Shown: positions 18,801 to 43,850 of the stretch, piece after piece | Layout of the letters: the number at the start of each line of letters is the position of its first letter | Numbering within the stretch: the stretch's first letter is position 1 | Source of the DNA: Octopus vulgaris | Lineage: Eukaryota | Direction: 5' to 3' | DNA: 64,000 nt | Assembly: GCA_951406725.2 (NCBI GenBank) | Contig: OX597815.1 | Location: 118,606,001-118,670,000, forward strand | Position numbers and translations under genes: made by a program | Notes under the pieces: model-generated | Databases searched by the model: none | What the model was told of the DNA's origin: nothing | Seen by the model: only the letters and a program-made list of their open reading frames with translations

Positions 18801-19416
18801 GCAGCTTAATAGAATATACACCACAATTTTTATGCATAGTATTATACTACACTCTACAAGTACAAATGGATATTAATAAATGCCTTAGTTGGAATATGTA
18901 ATGTATAAATGTCTTAATTCAAAATACATAAATTGGTATGGAAAAAATGAATAGAAGGAAAAAATCACAAAGTGAAATCATGCAATGAGAAAAAAATTTA
19001 AAAAAAAAGTTCTACTCTTTGATTTTTTTTCACAAAATGAAATGGAAAAAATATCAACATAGAATATTATGGAACACTACAGAAGATTTTACATAACAGG
19101 AAAATCTGATAAGCTGAGTATATAAAATGGCAACTACAGAAATTACTAACAGTTCTTTGACTATGGAAGAACAGTCTTGTGATATAAAACTATGAAACTA
19201 ATTTCAAATTTATTTATTTAAGAAACAAATGAATACTAGTTAAGGTTAAAATTTTTTAGATATATTTTTGGAAGTGTCAGAAAATTTCTGCAGATTGCCT
19301 TGAAATAGAAGTTTACAACTATTATAAATATCAAACTGTTTGGTGGGGTTCCTTTATTGAAATTATTGGTTTGCATTTACAATTTAAAGTGATTGCTTCA
19401 TTTAAAGGAAGCATTC
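15430..19416 (-). other. Probable long 3' UTR of the innexin (end uncertain, about 17.5 kb or 15.4 kb)
   Basis: Repeat-poor, CpG-depleted, U-rich on the minus strand; AATAAA (plus tttatt) at 17505-17510, 15429-15434 and 15441-15446. Confidence 0.45.
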
Positions 19417-20581
19417 TTAACTAGTTGGCTTCTCTTTGAAAATCTTCCATAACTGTTTCACCAAATCTGTCAAGACTAGATCAGTTGAATTTTTACCTAT
19501 TACTCTTAAGACAAAGACTCCATCATTGCGTAAATAGTTATCTGCGAAGTTTCTATATTGTTTTTTATCGTTATTGATTAGTGGAGTAGCTGAAAGTTTC
19601 AAGTATTTCTTAACGTATGCTGCATTGTTACGTCGGTAAATCATGTAATAGAGCCAACTTATCATGTTTGCTGAAGCTAAAACGGCCACAAAAACAAACC
19701 AGAACCAAAGGAAAATAAAAATCTTTTCATTGAACAGGTTAATAGGCAAGACACATTGGACAGTAAATCGTTGCAGATTAGTCATTTGTCGAATACTGAA
19801 ATCACACAAAGTGACTCGTGGAAATAGTGGTGATTCTTTAAAAGCACCATATTCGTTGAAGTGTTGCATCACTTGGAAACCATAGATGCCAAAATCAGTT
19901 GATAGAAAACTGTTTAACATAAAGAACTGTCCAATGATATTTACAAGATATAAGACTTTAATAGTGAGATAAAGACCAGATAAATATGTTCCTTCACGTT
20001 TACCACAGAAGCAGCAGCAAATTTTGGCAAACTTTTGGCGAGTTTTCACAACAAAATTACAATGGTAAATACGATTAGAATCAAGCCAACGATCCATGAA
20101 ATATGCTATGTGCTCGATAGTTTTTTTGCGATCATCAGGTGAACCATATTGAGTCTTCTCTGCTAATTCACAAAGCTTGTCTAAATTAACGCCTGAGGTG
20201 CCATGAAGAATTCTCCAGAGCAAATTTGGGGCTTTAAACAAAAGAGCTTGAAAAAGAAGAATTAAAGGCACCCACTGGTAATATGTTAATTGTCTGTCTT
20301 CTCTTTCATTAATATTAACAGGAATCGTGTCTGACATTGGAATATAGTAAGTATTTGAAATCCAGCATATCCATTTGGTATAGGCAACATATGCTCCTGT
20401 GAATTGGGCTGGGCACCAACAGTGTATTGGGTCACCAACCAACTGGCCTGTAGTGACTACTATTGCAAAGAGAACAAGGACAACCGATGAGTATATATGG
20501 CTCATGCGATCGACCCAGTCATCATTGGCTGCTGAAGTTAGACGGGAGAAGGTGGAGAAAGATCCGAACACACCCCACACC
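19417..20581 (-). CDS. Innexin (UNC-9/UNC-7-like gap-junction protein), main coding exon; 388 aa once the split ATG is completed
   Basis: DDWVDR..TM1, GDPIHCWCP, CWISNTY, YYQWVP, FPRVTLCDF, TVQCVLPINLFNEKIFIFLWFW, YLRNDGVFVLR; four TM segments; strong acceptor tttgtttttctttctttacag ending at 20582; TAA at 19417-19419. Confidence 0.97.
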
Positions 20582-20849
20582 CTGTAAAGAAAGAAAAACA
20601 AAGCAAATTAATATTTCTGAGCTATAATCACATCTGATAAATAATCAACAATAATCAAATGGCAAACATTTATGTAGGAAAAATGGTACAATCAACCATT
20701 GATATGTAATAGTTACAAGCATAAAAGAATATTTATGCAAAGTATACAGCAACATTTTCTTTTACAAATTTGATTAAAAAAATTTTTGTTTTAAATTTAA
20801 GAAAAATTAATTTTTTTTAAAAACAAGTAAAAAAAAAATATATACTCAC

Positions 20850-20852
20850 CAC
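20850..20852 (-). CDS. Candidate 3-nt innexin microexon (GTG), phase 2-2, adds Trp
   Basis: cattcatgacag|GTG|gtgagtata; attaac branch-like motif in a roughly 48-nt AG-free zone; U-rich downstream. Confidence 0.5.
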
Positions 20853-21084
20853 CTGTCATGAATGGTATATGAAATAATATTTACCAAGTTAATTTTAAAA
20901 TTCTAATATAACTAGCTAATAACAAGCTATTTTGAAGACCACATTTTTGTAGTGACATGGCTTTTTATAGATATAGATTATGTAGCTTAGATTTTGCACT
21001 GGAGGAAGGCAAAAGCATTTTAGCAGTAGCATGCTTCTCAAATAGAGCATATTTTATTATTGAATGTCCGTCCCTTCCCGTTCA

Positions 21085-23995
21085 GACAGTAATTTGTGGA
21101 AAGCAGGTCTGGTGAGATGATTCAGATGCTTGAATGGAGATGTGTAGATTTGTGCTGTAGGGTGGAGAGGAAGTTCTAAGTTTCTCACAGGCAAAGAATA
21201 TAGGTATAAGACTTTCTGGGAAGGTAACACTGATGGGGTTGAGGGTGTGGATATACTCCTTGCTGAGAAATGGATTGATAAGGTAATCGAGGTAGTCAGT
21301 CTGCAACATGGATTAGCAACAATTATCTTGGCCTATGCCCTTCAGCCAGGGCTATCTGATGAACAGAAAGAACGATTTCATGACACCCTCTTGCAGACCA
21401 CCTTGTTGATGAATGACAGGGACCTTCTCTTCATGGCTGGGGACTTCAATGGGCATGTTGGACAACATCCAGAGAACTTCTATGGTGTACATGGTGGCAA
21501 AGGATTTGGTACCTGCAAGGAGGGAACCAGGCTGCTGGAGTTCTGTGATGCAAATGATCTTATGGTCTGTGTAATACCATCTTCAGGAAACCAGCCAGTC
21601 ACCTGTTCACCTACCAGTCTGATGGGCACACTAGTCAGATTGACTACATTCTCACCAGGAAACAAGAAAGATGGCTACTTATAAATGCCAAAACATTCCC
21701 AGGTGAAGAATGCACCCCACAACATAGGTTAGTAGTTAGTGACAGCAGGATCAAGACTAAATGGCTGCCCAGAAGATGACCAGTGTGGGGAAAAAAGGGT
21801 CTGGAAGCTTAAGGATCCTCTGAATGGACAGGGCTTTTGATGAAAAAGAGGATATAGCATCACAATGTGGAGGACAATTGGGGGTTCTTATAGGACAGCC
21901 GGTTGAGGGCTACTGACCAGGTCTGTGGCTGATGCAAAGTCCCCACTTGACCTAAGGTGACATGGTAGTTGAAGGGAAAAGAAGCAGGCATGGAAGGACT
22001 GAAGGTGTGGTGGTAGCAGGGAACTGTAGCAGATCACCAGAAGTGAATCTAGGAGACACAGGTTTACTTAGCCAGAGAGGTAGCAGATAAGTAAAAATTT
22101 GCCAATGTTCTGTGTTGTGAGAACTAGAGATTTCAAGTGTTTTCTATTGCAAGACAGAGTGTGAGAGAGAATTGTAATGCCATAGGAGAGAAATATGTCC
22201 ACTTGCGTTTAATGACGCTGCAAAAAGAGCAACTTGGAGACACCACAATACAAGGTTGGTTGCTAAATGAAGAGAATGAGTGGGTGAAAGAGTCTGCCAA
22301 ATGTCAACCCAACAGGGGGACCAGCTATTCAAATTGACAGTACCGATGGTAGATAAGCAATTAAGGGTAAGAAGGCAGGGAAAGCCCCCACCACATCGGG
22401 AATCATTGCTGAGATGCTTAAAATGTCTAGGTTTAGGCTATAGTCTAGTCACCTGTATAGTCCATCAGGTGAAACATGAAGGAGTTATACCCAATGACTG
22501 GTGTAACAGCACCATAGTCAACTGCTACAAAGGTAAAGGTGATGCATTATAGAAATAGAGCTATCAAATTGTAGGATCAGGTGACGAAAGTCAGAGAGGG
22601 TCATAGCCCAACGAATTAGGGAGAGAGTTTACAAGCCATCGACAGGGATGCTGTCAGTAAAGTGAGGGTTGACAAGGAGTATGGCAAAGAGTTCTGGGTA
22701 GAAGTTCACCAAGGATCGGTGCTCAGCCTCCTCTTGTTCATCATAGTCCTCCAGGCAATAACACAGGAATTTAAGACAGGCTGTCCCTGGGAGCTCCTCT
22801 ATGCGAGTGACATTGCTCCAATAGCTGAGTCACTGCCAGAACTAGAGAAGTTTCAATTATGGAAGCAAGGTCTAGAATCAAAGGGCCTTAGAGTAAATCT
22901 AGCACAAACCAAGTCTTAGTAAGTAGGAAGGCAGACAAATTGCAAACCCTTTCAGGTAGATGGCCTTGCTCAATGTGTAGAAAAGGCATAGGTGGAAACT
23001 CCTAGCATGTACCCGGTGTAAGATATGGACACCGAAAAGGTGCAGCAATACCAAAGGACGTTTATCTGGGAAAATAGTTTTTTTTGTGTGGAAGATGCAC
23101 AGGTGCAATAAACACCAAAGATGTACAGAATACAGATTCCATCATATGCCGGGGAAAACTAGAAGTAGTTGAAAGCTTCCATTACCTAGGTGATCAAGTC
23201 AGTAGTGGGGATGGATGCTCCGAGAGCGTAGCTGCTAGAATAAGAATAGCATGGGCAAATTTTGGAGACCCCCTACCTCTACTGATAACAAAAGGCCTCT
23301 CGCTCAGAGTAAAAGGTAGACTGACTGTATTTTGCTTGAGTTCAAACAGCTATGTCACACAGCAGTGAAACATAGGCTGTGACATGTGTAAGCTTGAAAG
23401 AAATGAAGCTTGTATGCTCCACTGGAAGTGTGATGTCAACATGCATACAGAGTGGAAGTGTCCTGAGAGAAAAGTTGAAGCATCAGATGTAGTGTGCGAG
23501 AGATGACTGCACTGGTATGGTCATGTGATGTATATGAGGACAACTGTGTGAAGATGTGTCACACCCCAACAGTGGAAGGAACCTGTTGAAGAGGTAGACC
23601 CAGGAAGACTTGGGATGAGGTGGTGAAGCATGAACTTTGAACATTGGACTTCACAGAGGAAATGACAAGTAGGCAGAAGATGCCAGTGTTGCATAAATGG
23701 CCCATTTAAAAGCACCCTTTAATCATTGGGCAATATGCCATGCTTGTGAAGACCTGTTGAACCAAGTGAAATCATAGTCATGTCAGGGCTTCCTGACTGA
23801 CACCCATGTTGGGACATAAAAATCACCATTCAGCGTAGCTGAGGGCGATGCAGCCTGACTGGCATTAGGAAGGGCATCCAGGTGTAGAAACCCTGCCAAA
23901 TCAGAGTGGAGCCTGATGCAGCCTCCCAGCTTGCTCAGTCAAACCGTCCAACTCATGCCAGCATGGAAAGCAGATGGAAAGTGGATGTTAAACTA
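21085..23995 (+). mobile_element. Degraded RTE-clade LINE (APE endonuclease + RT), antisense inside the innexin intron
   Basis: AGDFNGHVG..GTRLLEFCDANDL (APE); IPNDWCNSTIVNCYKGKGDAL and VHQGSVLSLLLFIIVL..PWELLYASDI (RT); Cys-rich insert WPCSMC..CTRC..KRC..CGRC; many stops and frameshifts. Confidence 0.93.
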
Positions 23996-24056
23996 CAATG
24001 ATGATATTTCCTGCATATGCAAAGGCTCTTTGTTGGTCCATATGTTCATGTATGTG

Positions 24057-24120
<64 letters not shown>

Positions 24121-24376
24121 CAAATAAAATGAGTTTGTTCAAAAATTTGGTTACATCATAAGTTTTATTAATAATAATGCATATGGAGTTCAATATACTG
24201 GTTCTAGTGTACAAAACTTAAATCATTCTATATAATTATATGTGCACATGTAGAATGATGTGTGCATACACATGCATGTGCATTTATAAATATATAATCT
24301 TTTGTTTCTTTCATTGGACTACAGCTATGCTGGAACACCACCTTAAGTTTTAGTCAAATTAGTCAACCTCAGTATG

Positions 24377-24420
<44 letters not shown>

Positions 24421-24424
<4 letters not shown>

Positions 24425-24735
24425 CATGGTTGTGTGATAAGAAGCTTGCTATTGTGTGGCACCTTAGACAAGTGTCTTCTACTATAGCCTTAAGCCAACC
24501 AAAGCTTTGAGAGTGGATTCGGTAGACAGAACCTGAAAGAAGCTAGTTGTGTGTGTGTGTGTCCCCTACCACTGCTTCACAACCCGTGTTGGTGCATTTA
24601 CATCCCCATAACTTAACAGACTAATAGAATAAGTATCAGGTTTAAAAAATAACTACTGGGATGGGGTTGATTCATCCAACAAAGGTTCTTCAAAGTGCTC
24701 CATCATGGCTACAGTCAAATGACTTGAAACAAGAC
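24421..24735 (+). mobile_element. SINE family A, old and CpG-decayed
   Basis: Similarity to the 9562 copy. Confidence 0.8.
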
Positions 24736-26002
24736 ATAGCCTAAGGCTATACTAGAAAACATTTGGAAAAAATGTATAGTGGGATGAGCCACATGGTTGG
24801 GAAACAAGTTTTTTTATCCACAGCTATTCCTGCATGCACACACATTATATAAATATATATATATACTACATACGTACACATGTAATTACATATATATGAA
24901 AAAGACTACCTAAACGATTTAAGCAAGACCTACTATCTTTTAAATATGTTAGCAATGTTATTTCTTAAAATCATTAGAAATAACTGTTACAATGGAAATG
25001 ATTTTTCTTTAGCTCCGAAATAGAATCATTATAGGAATTTACATATTTTATAAACATTTAAAATCTATTACATTGAGAATACAAGCTACAAAAGATCTAA
25101 AAGGTATTAACTTTATTTTACATAATTCCCCCACTCCATTGATATTATTTAGAAATAGTTTCACACGAATACTTAATAATTAAAACAGCATGTCAATCAT
25201 TTATATATTTACTTCATCACATCACCACCACCTGGGAGAAATATTTGCTCTTGTGTAACTGAGAAAATTTAGTGTATAACACAGACCACATGTTTACATT
25301 GTAATTTTTTCCCCCCTACGTTTTTATTCTATTGTTTTTGTTTTTCAAAAGCAACTGGAGAGATCCCAAAAGCTGCTGATTTAAATGTGTCCAATTGCAT
25401 TTAATGGCAACGTGTCAGCCATTGCTGACTGTAAAAGTCATTGACAAGTTGACAACCAGCTAACAGCAAATAGTAACCTTTTCTCAAAAGGTGGTCTAGT
25501 CTATTCATACACACACACACACACACACAGCAAACTAATTTTTCAATCCAAGCCAATTTCAAAAACAAAAAACTTTTTTCTTCTATTTATCTAGCCTTGA
25601 GTTAAACTAAACCAAGCAACTACAACTACCTTACTACTGTCTCTGTAAACTAGTCACATTACATTTTGAACTCAAATATTACATTAAAACCAACTAGATA
25701 TGACTAGTGAAGACTTCTTTCATTGTTTTAACTGGTGTCTGGAAGGGAGAGAGCCCCTGACTTTTGCAAGATTTTATAAATTGGTGACGATGATGCTGTT
25801 TAGATTGTTGCAGGTAAACATTGGCAAAAAATTTAAGATTCTGGGGATGTGGTAGTGTTAATACTCTGAGTATTTTTAGTGCAAAATTGGGGACACGGGT
25901 GAGAGAGTAGAGAGATGAGTTAGTAAGGGACACGAGACAAGGAGGTTATGGGTCCAGCTAGCTCTGAGGAACAGCAGCCACTATTCTATCCTTTTTTCTT
26001 CT

Positions 26003-26410
26003 TTTATGTTTCAGTCCTTTGACTGCGGTCATGCTGGAGCACTGCCTTTAGTTGAACAAATTGACACCAGGACTTTTTCTTTGTAAGCCTAGTACTTACT
26101 CCATTGGTTTCTTTTGTTGAACCGCTTTGTTATGGGGATGTAAACATACCAACATTGGTTGTCAAGTGATGGTGAGGGGACAAACACATATGCACACACA
26201 CACACACACACGTGTGTGTGTGAATATATACATATATATACATATACAACAGGCTTCTTTTAATTTCTGTCTACCAAATCCACTCACAAGGCTTTGGTCA
26301 GCTCAAGGCTATAGTAGGACACACTTGCCCAAGGTGCCATACAGTCGGACTGAACCCAGAACAATGTGGTTGGTAAACAAGCTACTAACTACACAGCCAC
26401 TCTTGCGCCA
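26003..26410 (-). mobile_element. SINE family A
   Basis: Reverse-complement similarity to the 9562 copy. Confidence 0.88.
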
Positions 26411-26678
26411 GGAGTAGCAATAAAAATATAAAAACTAGTGAATATCAATCGGGGCTTTGTGAAAGCTATTTTATCAGAACTTCTCATGAAGTAGATTTTA
26501 TCAATTTGATCTCCTAAGATATATTAAGGAACTCATTATCCCATTACCATCTAGCCATATTCATGCATGACTTCTTATATTTTTTCAAGTGCATGTGTGC
26601 GTCATCACAGATTCAATACAATTAAATAACATTGCTCACAGTTCAATTACAATTATTTTCTTTTGATGAATGACATTT

Positions 26679-27030: not shown

Positions 27031-27659
27031 AATACACTCACACATGATGGACTCTCCTGGAGACAACGTATGAGTGTTCAGCTTTTGCCTAATGACCTGT
27101 ACAGATGATTTGTTTATAGTGATCAAATGTATGTGCTGCACATTGGCTCACTCCCTTCATCAAATCGACATTGTCCAAACAGGTGCACTAATGCCAGGTA
27201 TCAAAGTAATCACAGAGCTACACGAGATGAGTTTTCCTCAAGAACACAATGCAGCACCGTCTAGGAATTGAACTCAGGAGTGATCATGGGTGCAACAACA
27301 CCCTAACCACTAAGCCATGTCCCATTGCACTGCACCTTGGACAAGTGTCAGCTACTATTTATTGCCTCAGAACAAACAAAACCTTGTGGATGGATTTGAT
27401 GAACTGAAAATGGAAGAAGTCCATCTTGCGTATATACGTGTGTGTGCATCTTATCTTTCGCTTATTTCAGTCACTAGGCAGTGGCCATGTTTGGAGCACT
27501 ACCTTGGAAGGTTTAGCTGAACAAATCAATCCCAGTACTTATTGTTTTTTTAAGTTTGGCACTTCTTAGTTATCATCATCGTTTATTCTTATTCTATCAG
27601 TCTTTTTTGTTAACCACACACAGAGTGTGAATGTTTGCACTTCTTTGTTCTCATGTCTC

Positions 27660-33662: not shown

Positions 33663-33684
33663 CCCATTGTTTTATTTAAAAGGG
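33663..33684 (-). CDS. Candidate alternative start exon of the innexin (ATG GG|), either the 3' end of a first exon or a 22-nt internal exon
   Basis: cctaaccag|cccttttaaataaaacaATGGG|gtaagtg: consensus donor, phase 2, good initiation context; gives MGVWG or MGWVWG. Confidence 0.5.
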
Positions 33685-37700: not shown

Positions 37701-38317
37701 GCCAAAGCAGACGTTGGAGTTTGACGCAGTCTTCTGGTTCATCAATCCTATCCAAACCGTGTCTACATGGAGGATGGACATTAACTGATGATTTTTATCA
37801 GCATAGTTGTAATTCACACACTCCAAAACTTATCCCTGCATAGTTTCATTAATAAATATGAAGAAACAAAGTCGGGGAGACATGAAACTGTAGCTAAATC
37901 ACAGAATATGCATAACTTTCAAGAGTATTCTACAGAGACGACGGGAATTGTGAGGAAACCGTTCGGAGCAACCGTTCGCATTCTTGGGCAGGCAGCAGAC
38001 TTAATCTGTCGCTCAATTTAACATCGCATCTGGCCTTGGAGTACCTTTAAAGAAGTCCGATAATTTACTCCGTTTCAGTAGCTTTAAGAGAAATGTTAAC
38101 CTTCTTCCTCGCACTGAACAATCAAAAACATTAATAAAGTTTTAAAAATATCTCAATAGATAGTGCATGCATGCAACAGCAAAGCTTGCCTTATGTACCA
38201 GGAATTATTCTGGTTTATCAAATATTACGAATGGAATATTTTTGGCAAAAGAGAGCTGAACATAACTCTAAATTAAACAAAATAGTGACAAAGAAAAAAA
38301 AAAAGAAAACTACTTAC

Positions 38318-38323
38318 TGACTC
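38318..38323 (-). CDS. Candidate 6-nt innexin microexon (GAGTCA), phase 2-2, adds Ser-Gln
   Basis: ttttcatttttctgttatatcttttcctcag|GAGTCA|gtaagtagttttc: textbook acceptor and donor; no other AG for about 160 nt upstream. Confidence 0.75.
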
Positions 38324-38472
38324 CTGAGGAAAAGATATAACAGAAAAATGAAAATTTAAATCATTTTCGCATATAAGAACCGCAAGTTGAAAAATAATGA
38401 TGAAACAAGAGTAGAAAATATATAATTATTAATTCAATTGATGATTAAATTATATTAAAGCGTTAATATTTG

Positions 38473-38813
38473 AAATGGTTAATATCTAGATCCGCACCCG
38501 GTTGGAAAAATGGAAACGAAAATGTGTAACAGTTGTAAGGCATCGTATATTGACGGAATAAGACGTAAAAAAAGCGCGCTGACAAACGGGGGGGTTGGGT
38601 TGGGGGGGAGGGGGGGAGGGAAATTCCCAGGATCAACCGTAGAGGATCCACGCCCAGGTCCGCCCGTTTGTCAGCGCGCTTTTTTTCCGTCTTATTTCGT
38701 CAATATACGATGCCTTACAACTGTTACACATTTTCGTTTCCATTTTTCCCACCGGGTGCGGATCTAGATATTAACCATTTTCCCACCGGGTGCGGATCTA
38801 GATATTAACCATT
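38473..38813. mobile_element. MITE-like foldback: about 118-bp inverted arms (38473-38590 / 38663-38780), G-rich loop, 33-bp duplicated end
   Basis: aaatggttaatatctagatccgcacccggt..cgcgctgacaaacggg / cccgtttgtcagcgcg..accgggtgcggatctagatattaaccattt. Confidence 0.9.
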
Positions 38814-43071: not shown

Positions 43072-43083
43072 CAATTAACTGTC
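43072..43083 (-). CDS. Candidate 12-nt innexin microexon (GACAGTTAATTG), phase 2-2, adds Thr-Val-Asn-Trp
   Basis: ttactatcag|GACAGTTAATTG|gtgagtttatt; consensus donor; about 80-nt AG-free zone upstream but weak pyrimidine tract. Confidence 0.5.
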
Positions 43084-43533: not shown

Positions 43534-43850
43534 ATGTTTTCTTACTGATGTTTAAACTCGCAAGTTTCTTTTATAAAACTATGTAAAGAAAACTTTTATG
43601 TTAAGAAGGATGGCTGAGAATAAATGCTATCTCATAAATTTCCTTCATCAATATCGCGGCTTCTTTCTCTTCTGGCTTGGAGTTTCAGAAAAGTGCACAT
43701 GTTTGGAAAGCCCCCCTCAGAGAATATCGTCTATGCACGTTGCTTGTAAACATTAGAAGAACGAACCCACAACAGAAAGTAGTTCGTAGATAAAACACAC
43801 GCTCGTCGACGACGAAGACAGATCAGCTCTCTCTTTCTCTGCAAGCGACA
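43534..43850 (-). other. Predicted first exon of the innexin (5' UTR plus the first two bases, AT, of the start codon); 5' end approximate
   Basis: taa gaa aac AT|gtaagtac: consensus donor; in-frame TAA just upstream; AAAACATG context after splicing; repeat-free and CpG-retaining. Confidence 0.65.

Follow-up and report, generated by a model that had tools for sequence, protein, structure and literature searches.

The window analysed here, a stretch of 64,000 nucleotides of the Octopus vulgaris genome, carries an innexin gene on its minus strand (Table 1). The protein encoded by its single large coding exon matches the innexin profile of Pfam (PF00876, E = 2.1e-95), is homologous to INX-6 (E = 2.5e-47) and is identical to annotated proteins of O. 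vulgaris and O. sinensis. Since exon A, upstream, ends in AT (43534) and the coding exon starts with G (20581), the start codon is split between the two exons (AT/G) by a first coding intron of 23 kb. The acceptors of the first coding exon read AG/G in the same phase (phase 2) at all nine resolved innexin loci (L002-L008, L012 and L013; one further copy was unresolved), so a start codon split in this way seems to be a general trait of the innexin family here. Within the 23-kb intron lies a six-base candidate exon, the inclusion of which completes the split ATG and turns the protein start from MVWG into MSQVWG.

Table 1. Features of the innexin locus and of related loci (positions are those of the window, except for those prefixed C2).
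Feature	Position	Strand	Basis
5' exon A, ends in AT, donor GTAAGT	43534..43837	-	inferred from contig overhangs; 5' extent approximate
Multicopy inverted-repeat (MITE-like) element	38473..38813	.	arms, genomic matches, predicted fold
3' splice region (CAG, pyrimidine tracts, UGCs, AG-free stretch)	38324..38485	-	sequence; branch points by motif inference
Candidate 6-nt cassette microexon GAGTCA, phase 2/phase 2	38318..38323	-	sequence and MSQVWG proteins
5' splice site GTAAGT, then T-rich run	38312..38317	-	sequence
3' end of exon B (ATG GG), MGVWG isoform, downstream of the microexon	33663..33667	-	sequence and proteins P0002, P0005
Single large coding exon, starts with G	19417..20581	-	PF00876 and contigs
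Alternative 5' exons carrying an ATG in two innexin paralogues (MGSDEE, MDYL, MSIPVSTSDDNFFTV)	C2:118404955-118404939, 171518096-171518086, ~171502315-171502272	-	match annotated isoforms

On the minus strand the order of elements is TTTTCCTCAG/GAGTCA/GTAAGT, with the acceptor AG at 38325-38324. A preliminary description of this DNA had pointed to an acceptor and a GTAAGT donor only six bases apart, to two UGC triplets upstream, to a U-rich tract after the donor and to a stretch free of AG from 38326 to about 38485, and all of these were recovered. The UGCs lie at -48 (38371) and -61 (38384) from the acceptor and the T-rich run directly 3' of the donor. The previous AG is at 38487, giving an AG-to-AG distance of 162 and 160 AG-free bases (38485-38326). 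The same description named extended AG-free pyrimidine tracts as a feature of eMIC-dependent microexons; the absence of AG stands, but the composition of the zone is mixed and does not amount to a single tract. The share of pyrimidines is 51% at -150 to -97 (an A/T-rich segment), 78% at -97 to -60, 45% at -45 to -25 and 86% at -25 to -3. The distal tract (-97 to -60) is preceded by candidate distal branch points of the form TTAAY at -109 to -159, recognised by motif, whereas the CTAAY (CUAAY) form is absent from the 170 nt upstream of the microexon and CTCT (CUCU) occurs there once. With six bases, phase 2 on both sides and consensus splice sites at either end inside an intron, the element has the size of a cassette microexon (3-27 nt) and preserves the reading frame.

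The far end of the AG-free zone falls in an inverted-repeat element, the AG of which bounds the zone, so that about 149 nt of it are non-element sequence. Its 121-nt arms are 97% complementary, one of its ends is repeated in tandem as an additional 34-nt copy, and the genome contains at least 276 matches to the element. The element is predicted to form a long hairpin in the pre-mRNA about 150 nt upstream of the microexon (z = -24). Such a duplex might be a substrate for A-to-I editing or modulate splicing.

We assessed how unusual the site is at several scales. In 928 kb, made up of the window and additional fetched sequence, 195 of the 50,429 gaps between AGs on both strands reached 162 or more. 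A strict search of the same 928 kb (acceptor, 3-27 nt and donor, at least 80% pyrimidines, at least 100 bases free of AG) had two matches on both strands, of which the other is a (TC)n microsatellite. The intron itself holds 32 short AG..GTRAG units, among which five start with G and are in frame, and only that at 38318-38323 has at least 80% pyrimidines. Across the genome, the motif Y9CAG-N-GTAAGT has 73 sites with N = 5, 61 with N = 6 and 52 with N = 7, showing no surplus of the six-base spacing over five or seven; a narrower pattern, which the 38318-38323 site does not fit, gave one match. As the frame-preserving length is not in excess, most of these sites are not exons, and the splice motif by itself is not diagnostic of one. 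The AG-free zone sets the site apart: among 90 of the 186 sites with this motif (the first 30 for each length), 38318-38323 has the longest (162, the next being 117, with medians of 20.5-23.5), and the AG-to-AG distances at nine constitutive innexin acceptors range from 21 to 103. The G-poor zone upstream came out AG-free in 2.4% of shuffles of its composition. The UGCs, in turn, are at background frequency, since 61% of 457 windows of 150 nt in this intron contain at least two, a count reached in 14% of composition-matched shuffles.

Shortly before the ATG-GG exon (approximately 33722-33663), a candidate exon of 51 nt that ends in AT (33858-33808, minus strand) could be another 5' exon for MVWG or part of the leader of the MG transcript. 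At 26100 (minus strand), within a high-copy repeat, the string ATG GA precedes a GTAAGT and would give MEVWG, a start for which no protein was found. A second probe in the preliminary description implied two more microexons, of 12 nt at 43083 and of 3 nt at 20852. Their pyrimidine tracts are weak (0.5 and 0.6), neither is seen in any of the 12 proteins with the N-terminus of this gene, and both were set aside as unsupported, together with candidates at 27056 and 26952.

Three N-termini are annotated for this gene, namely MVWG (388 aa), MGVWG (389 aa) and MSQVWG (390 aa). The last is found in XP_036354388.1 (O. sinensis, isoform X1) and in XP_014772954.1 (O. bimaculoides, from an older set), i.e., in two species of which one lies outside the vulgaris group. 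The earlier prediction that the six bases insert Ser-Gln thus matches independent annotation. In the 143,419 nt that precede the coding exon, M-S-Q can be obtained with consensus splice sites only from exon A joined to the microexon, the four other M-S-Q strings having non-consensus donors. We infer that the MSQ models use the exon at 38318-38323, a comparison made at the level of the protein rather than of exon coordinates. The records found for O. vulgaris and Argonauta have the MG and M forms, without SQ. None of the nine members of an orthologue cluster with 74% identity carries SQ, and short N-terminal fragments were looked for but did not turn up. For O. bimaculoides, the MSQ model is present only in the older source, and the renumbering of its sister isoforms (X2 to X1, X3 to X2) suggests that it was dropped.

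Contigs were available from four of the 24 listed runs (presumed RNA, of unspecified tissue), aligned over 19400-26500, a range that covers the coding exon but neither exon A nor the microexon. The coding exon was covered in all four runs. In three of them (X1, X5 and X18) the contig passes the acceptor by four bases with one mismatch and overhangs it, with overhangs of 290, 231 and 300 nt; in the fourth (X12) it stops, at a branch, exactly at the acceptor (20581). Five possible partners upstream were compared, and exon A alone reproduces this four-base extension, provided that the single mismatch of the contig falls within the four bases. Hence, skipping would be the main form in these three runs, and is probably the major form of the gene. 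No junction with the microexon was found among the contigs of the four runs; as contigs drop rare variants, they neither show nor exclude inclusion.

Taken together, the six bases are very probably spliced into some transcripts. The explanation that we favour, and hold to be probable on the whole, is that of a real but usually skipped cassette microexon of an innexin, which changes MVWG into MSQVWG and likely fine-tunes the N-terminal funnel that lines the pore. A minor, frame-preserving microexon that automated protein models already reflect is likely. Placed between exon A (AT) and the coding exon (G), it would be recognised through its strong donor and a remote branch point somewhere in the extended stretch without AG. 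A tissue-restricted activator may help its inclusion, most plausibly the eMIC-bearing Srrm2/3/4 protein encoded in the genome. The tip of the funnel would become two residues longer and, after removal of the methionine, would start with Ser instead of Val. By the rules of N-terminal processing and NatA, a second residue that is Ser promotes acetylation to a greater degree than Val does, so the MSQ form would be the more readily acetylated. Conductance or voltage dependence might then shift modestly, with the channel not being switched on or off.

What is known of innexin and connexin N-termini bears on the size of this effect. In INX-6 the N-termini form the narrowest constriction of the pore, and the first six residues (Met1-Gly6) are disordered and were not resolved in the structure, according to the available text (PMC5146279). 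Octopus Q3 aligns with Q4 of INX-6. Deletion of residues 2-3 of INX-6 is described as leaving hemichannel activity in place, while deletion of residues 2-6 abolished it (PMC7015682, in the sections available), and because the loss of residues 2-3 is tolerated the functional effect is probably subtle. Simulations of Cx26 are reported to have matched measured currents only when charge changes from co- and post-translational modification were included (PMC3206306, in part). An AlphaFold model of the octopus protein (alignment of 58 sequences, mean pLDDT of 81) has a pLDDT below 50 at residues 1-17 and is uninformative on the tip. Given the INX-6 deletion and the disordered tip, the effect of Ser-Gln may even be nil; if there is one, modulation seems more plausible than an on/off switch.

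The same observations can be read in other ways. The exon could be real but neutral, a cryptic exon arising from strong sites in an A/T-rich, G-poor intron and included at a low level, in frame, at a disordered tip. The lack of inclusion in the contigs, the MSQ model apparently dropped in one species, the shuffles in which a zone this poor in G lost AG by composition and the tolerance of INX-6 (PMC7015682, as far as available) all fit such an exon, which we nevertheless find rather unlikely, as two species that are not both of the vulgaris group have an identical Ser-Gln peptide in their annotation, and molluscan innexin models repeatedly vary their N-termini at this very position. It is much less probable that the motif arose by chance and that the MSQ proteins stem from an ATG-bearing alternative 5' exon. 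Paralogues do make their variants in this way (MGSDEE, MDYL, MSIPVS and others), each spacing of the motif has 52-73 occurrences in the genome, and there is one ATG-Ser-CA string at 23385. Yet this string has a non-consensus donor (GCCTAT), sits in a high-depth repeat and has no counterpart in the 143 kb, whereas only about 0.00025 six-base motifs are expected by chance in this intron and the one observed spells the annotated residues. The length of the intron, the extent of the AG-free zone and the strength of the acceptor would also suit a recursive-splicing (ratchet) point that removes the 23-kb intron stepwise and leaves the six bases as a by-product. Here the acceptor is followed by GA (AG/GA) instead of GT, so no donor would be regenerated at the junction; lacking AG/GT, the site was rejected as a ratchet point, which makes this the least credible of the readings.

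A stricter version of the favoured explanation holds that the exon is a canonical neural microexon dependent on the eMIC of Srrm2/3/4, with high inclusion in neurons only, obtained through the UGCs; the preliminary description had proposed neuron-biased inclusion of Ser-Gln. The genome does encode this domain: an SRRM_C match (PF15230) is above the cut-off at C25:37317492-37317636 (plus strand). An exon 24 kb downstream on the same strand, reading SARKRPVPY (C25:37341781 onward), is presumably a second eMIC exon, by a motif that we take to mark the domain. The cwf21 matches lie elsewhere, the nearest 1.5 Mb upstream of the eMIC on C25 and another on C27. As outlined in the available parts of two preprints (bioRxiv 2021.02.24.432780; 2024.09.17.613571), eMIC-dependent microexons measure 3-27 nt, are in frame and have a long AG-exclusion zone, upstream UGCs and a strong donor; in flies, the UGC of such exons is near the 3' splice site, which is very weak. 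The length, the preserved frame, an exceptional AG-exclusion zone and the two eMIC exons on C25 speak for the canonical mechanism, and the putative TTAAY branch points, the pyrimidine tract, the UGCs and the AG follow each other in the fitting order, although over an unusually long distance. The long exclusion zone is nevertheless the only eMIC hallmark clearly present in the flanks. The UGCs are distant from the acceptor and no more frequent than in the rest of the intron, the proximal tract is strong where fly eMIC exons have a very weak 3' splice site (bioRxiv 2021.02.24.432780, in part), and a weak AG-proximal region with a displaced CU-rich tract and CUAAY, which is typical but not absolute, was not found. 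Mammalian eMIC exons usually have a UGC that lies after the branch point and before the AG, yet do not strictly require it, according to the text available (bioRxiv 2024.09.17.613571). With skipping as the dominant form in three runs of unspecified tissue, we consider canonical, neuron-only regulation possible but doubtful.

A bolder extension would make the split ATG a site of neural control. Under it, a neuron-specific, eMIC-driven exon alters the first residue and the acetylation of the innexin funnel and gives differently gated electrical synapses from one gene, as an instance of a scheme shared by molluscs, with a conserved intron within the ATG acting as a slot into which different channel N-termini are plugged. 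We think this extension unlikely as a whole. The pore of innexin channels is lined by their N-termini, which also set voltage gating, and microexons are a main route by which neural proteins are tuned. With M, MG and MSQ on an identical channel, the gene provides a minimal natural series for probing the weight of the extreme N-terminus, and a compact test of eMIC rules in cephalopods. Should inclusion prove rare or silent, the MSQ form would be an ordinary annotated minor isoform.

The exon GAGTCA is not described in the literature that we found on octopus and innexin microexons and isoforms outside subscription journals, and no paper was found that links innexin N-termini with microexons. The accessible parts of papers on Limax (PMC8049302), Lymnaea (10.1101/785451) and the bobtail squid (10.1101/2022.05.26.490366) make no mention of it, and a 2026 preprint that measured the use of cassette exons in O. 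bimaculoides (10.64898/2026.09.05.749416) has no match to "innexin" in its main text. The closest records are XP_036354388.1 and XP_014772954.1 (innexin unc-9 or unc-9-like, isoform X1), which are the same 390-aa protein as that predicted from inclusion, a likeness drawn by protein alone to automated predictions that carry no regulation or function.

Swapping of the innexin N-terminus at this intron is already common in molluscan gene models and known for UNC-7 and ShakB, and the twist here would be an internal six-base exon. In models of oyster, scallop, chiton and limpet the change likewise enters just behind the methionine. Oyster innexins start with MV, MGEGV or MGEG..PTAV, those of scallop with MV, MSEV, MPEV or MGDGV, and Octopus paralogues with M or MGSDEE and with M or MDYL. 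The oyster and scallop models (P0030, P0155-P0159, P0056, P0169-P0180) place three to four such variants of each gene at this one position, and nested ones (MGEG-V and MGEG-x9-12-V) hint at cassette exons there. In two Octopus paralogues followed to the DNA the variants come from ATG-bearing 5' exons 13-41 kb upstream, unlike the internal microexon, which is thus an unusual route. A segment SSDD..NFFTV also occurs in the protein of a relative (P0148). For one paralogue, the preceding 100 kb contain no strict microexon candidate in the sense orientation; for another, two candidates of 30-39 nt lie 88-91 kb upstream.

Outside molluscs, UNC-7 of Caenorhabditis elegans and ShakB(N+16) and ShakB(L) of Drosophila likewise represent several N-termini per innexin gene. 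This part of the protein determines Vj dependence and rectification, and both properties vary among UNC-7 isoforms that have distinct N-termini (PMC7455501, in the sections available). Those variants involve tens of residues and charged motifs, whereas the octopus variant, predicted here, adds two uncharged residues through an internal six-base exon. With the eMIC microexons of mammals and of Drosophila Srrm234 the octopus exon, known here from sequence alone, shares its six in-frame bases, the AG-exclusion zone, the upstream UGC and the strong donor. It differs from them in UGCs that are unenriched and far from the AG, in a strong proximal tract and in the lack of CUAAY, and also in its place: eMIC microexons lie within a domain, whereas that of the octopus sits inside the start codon.
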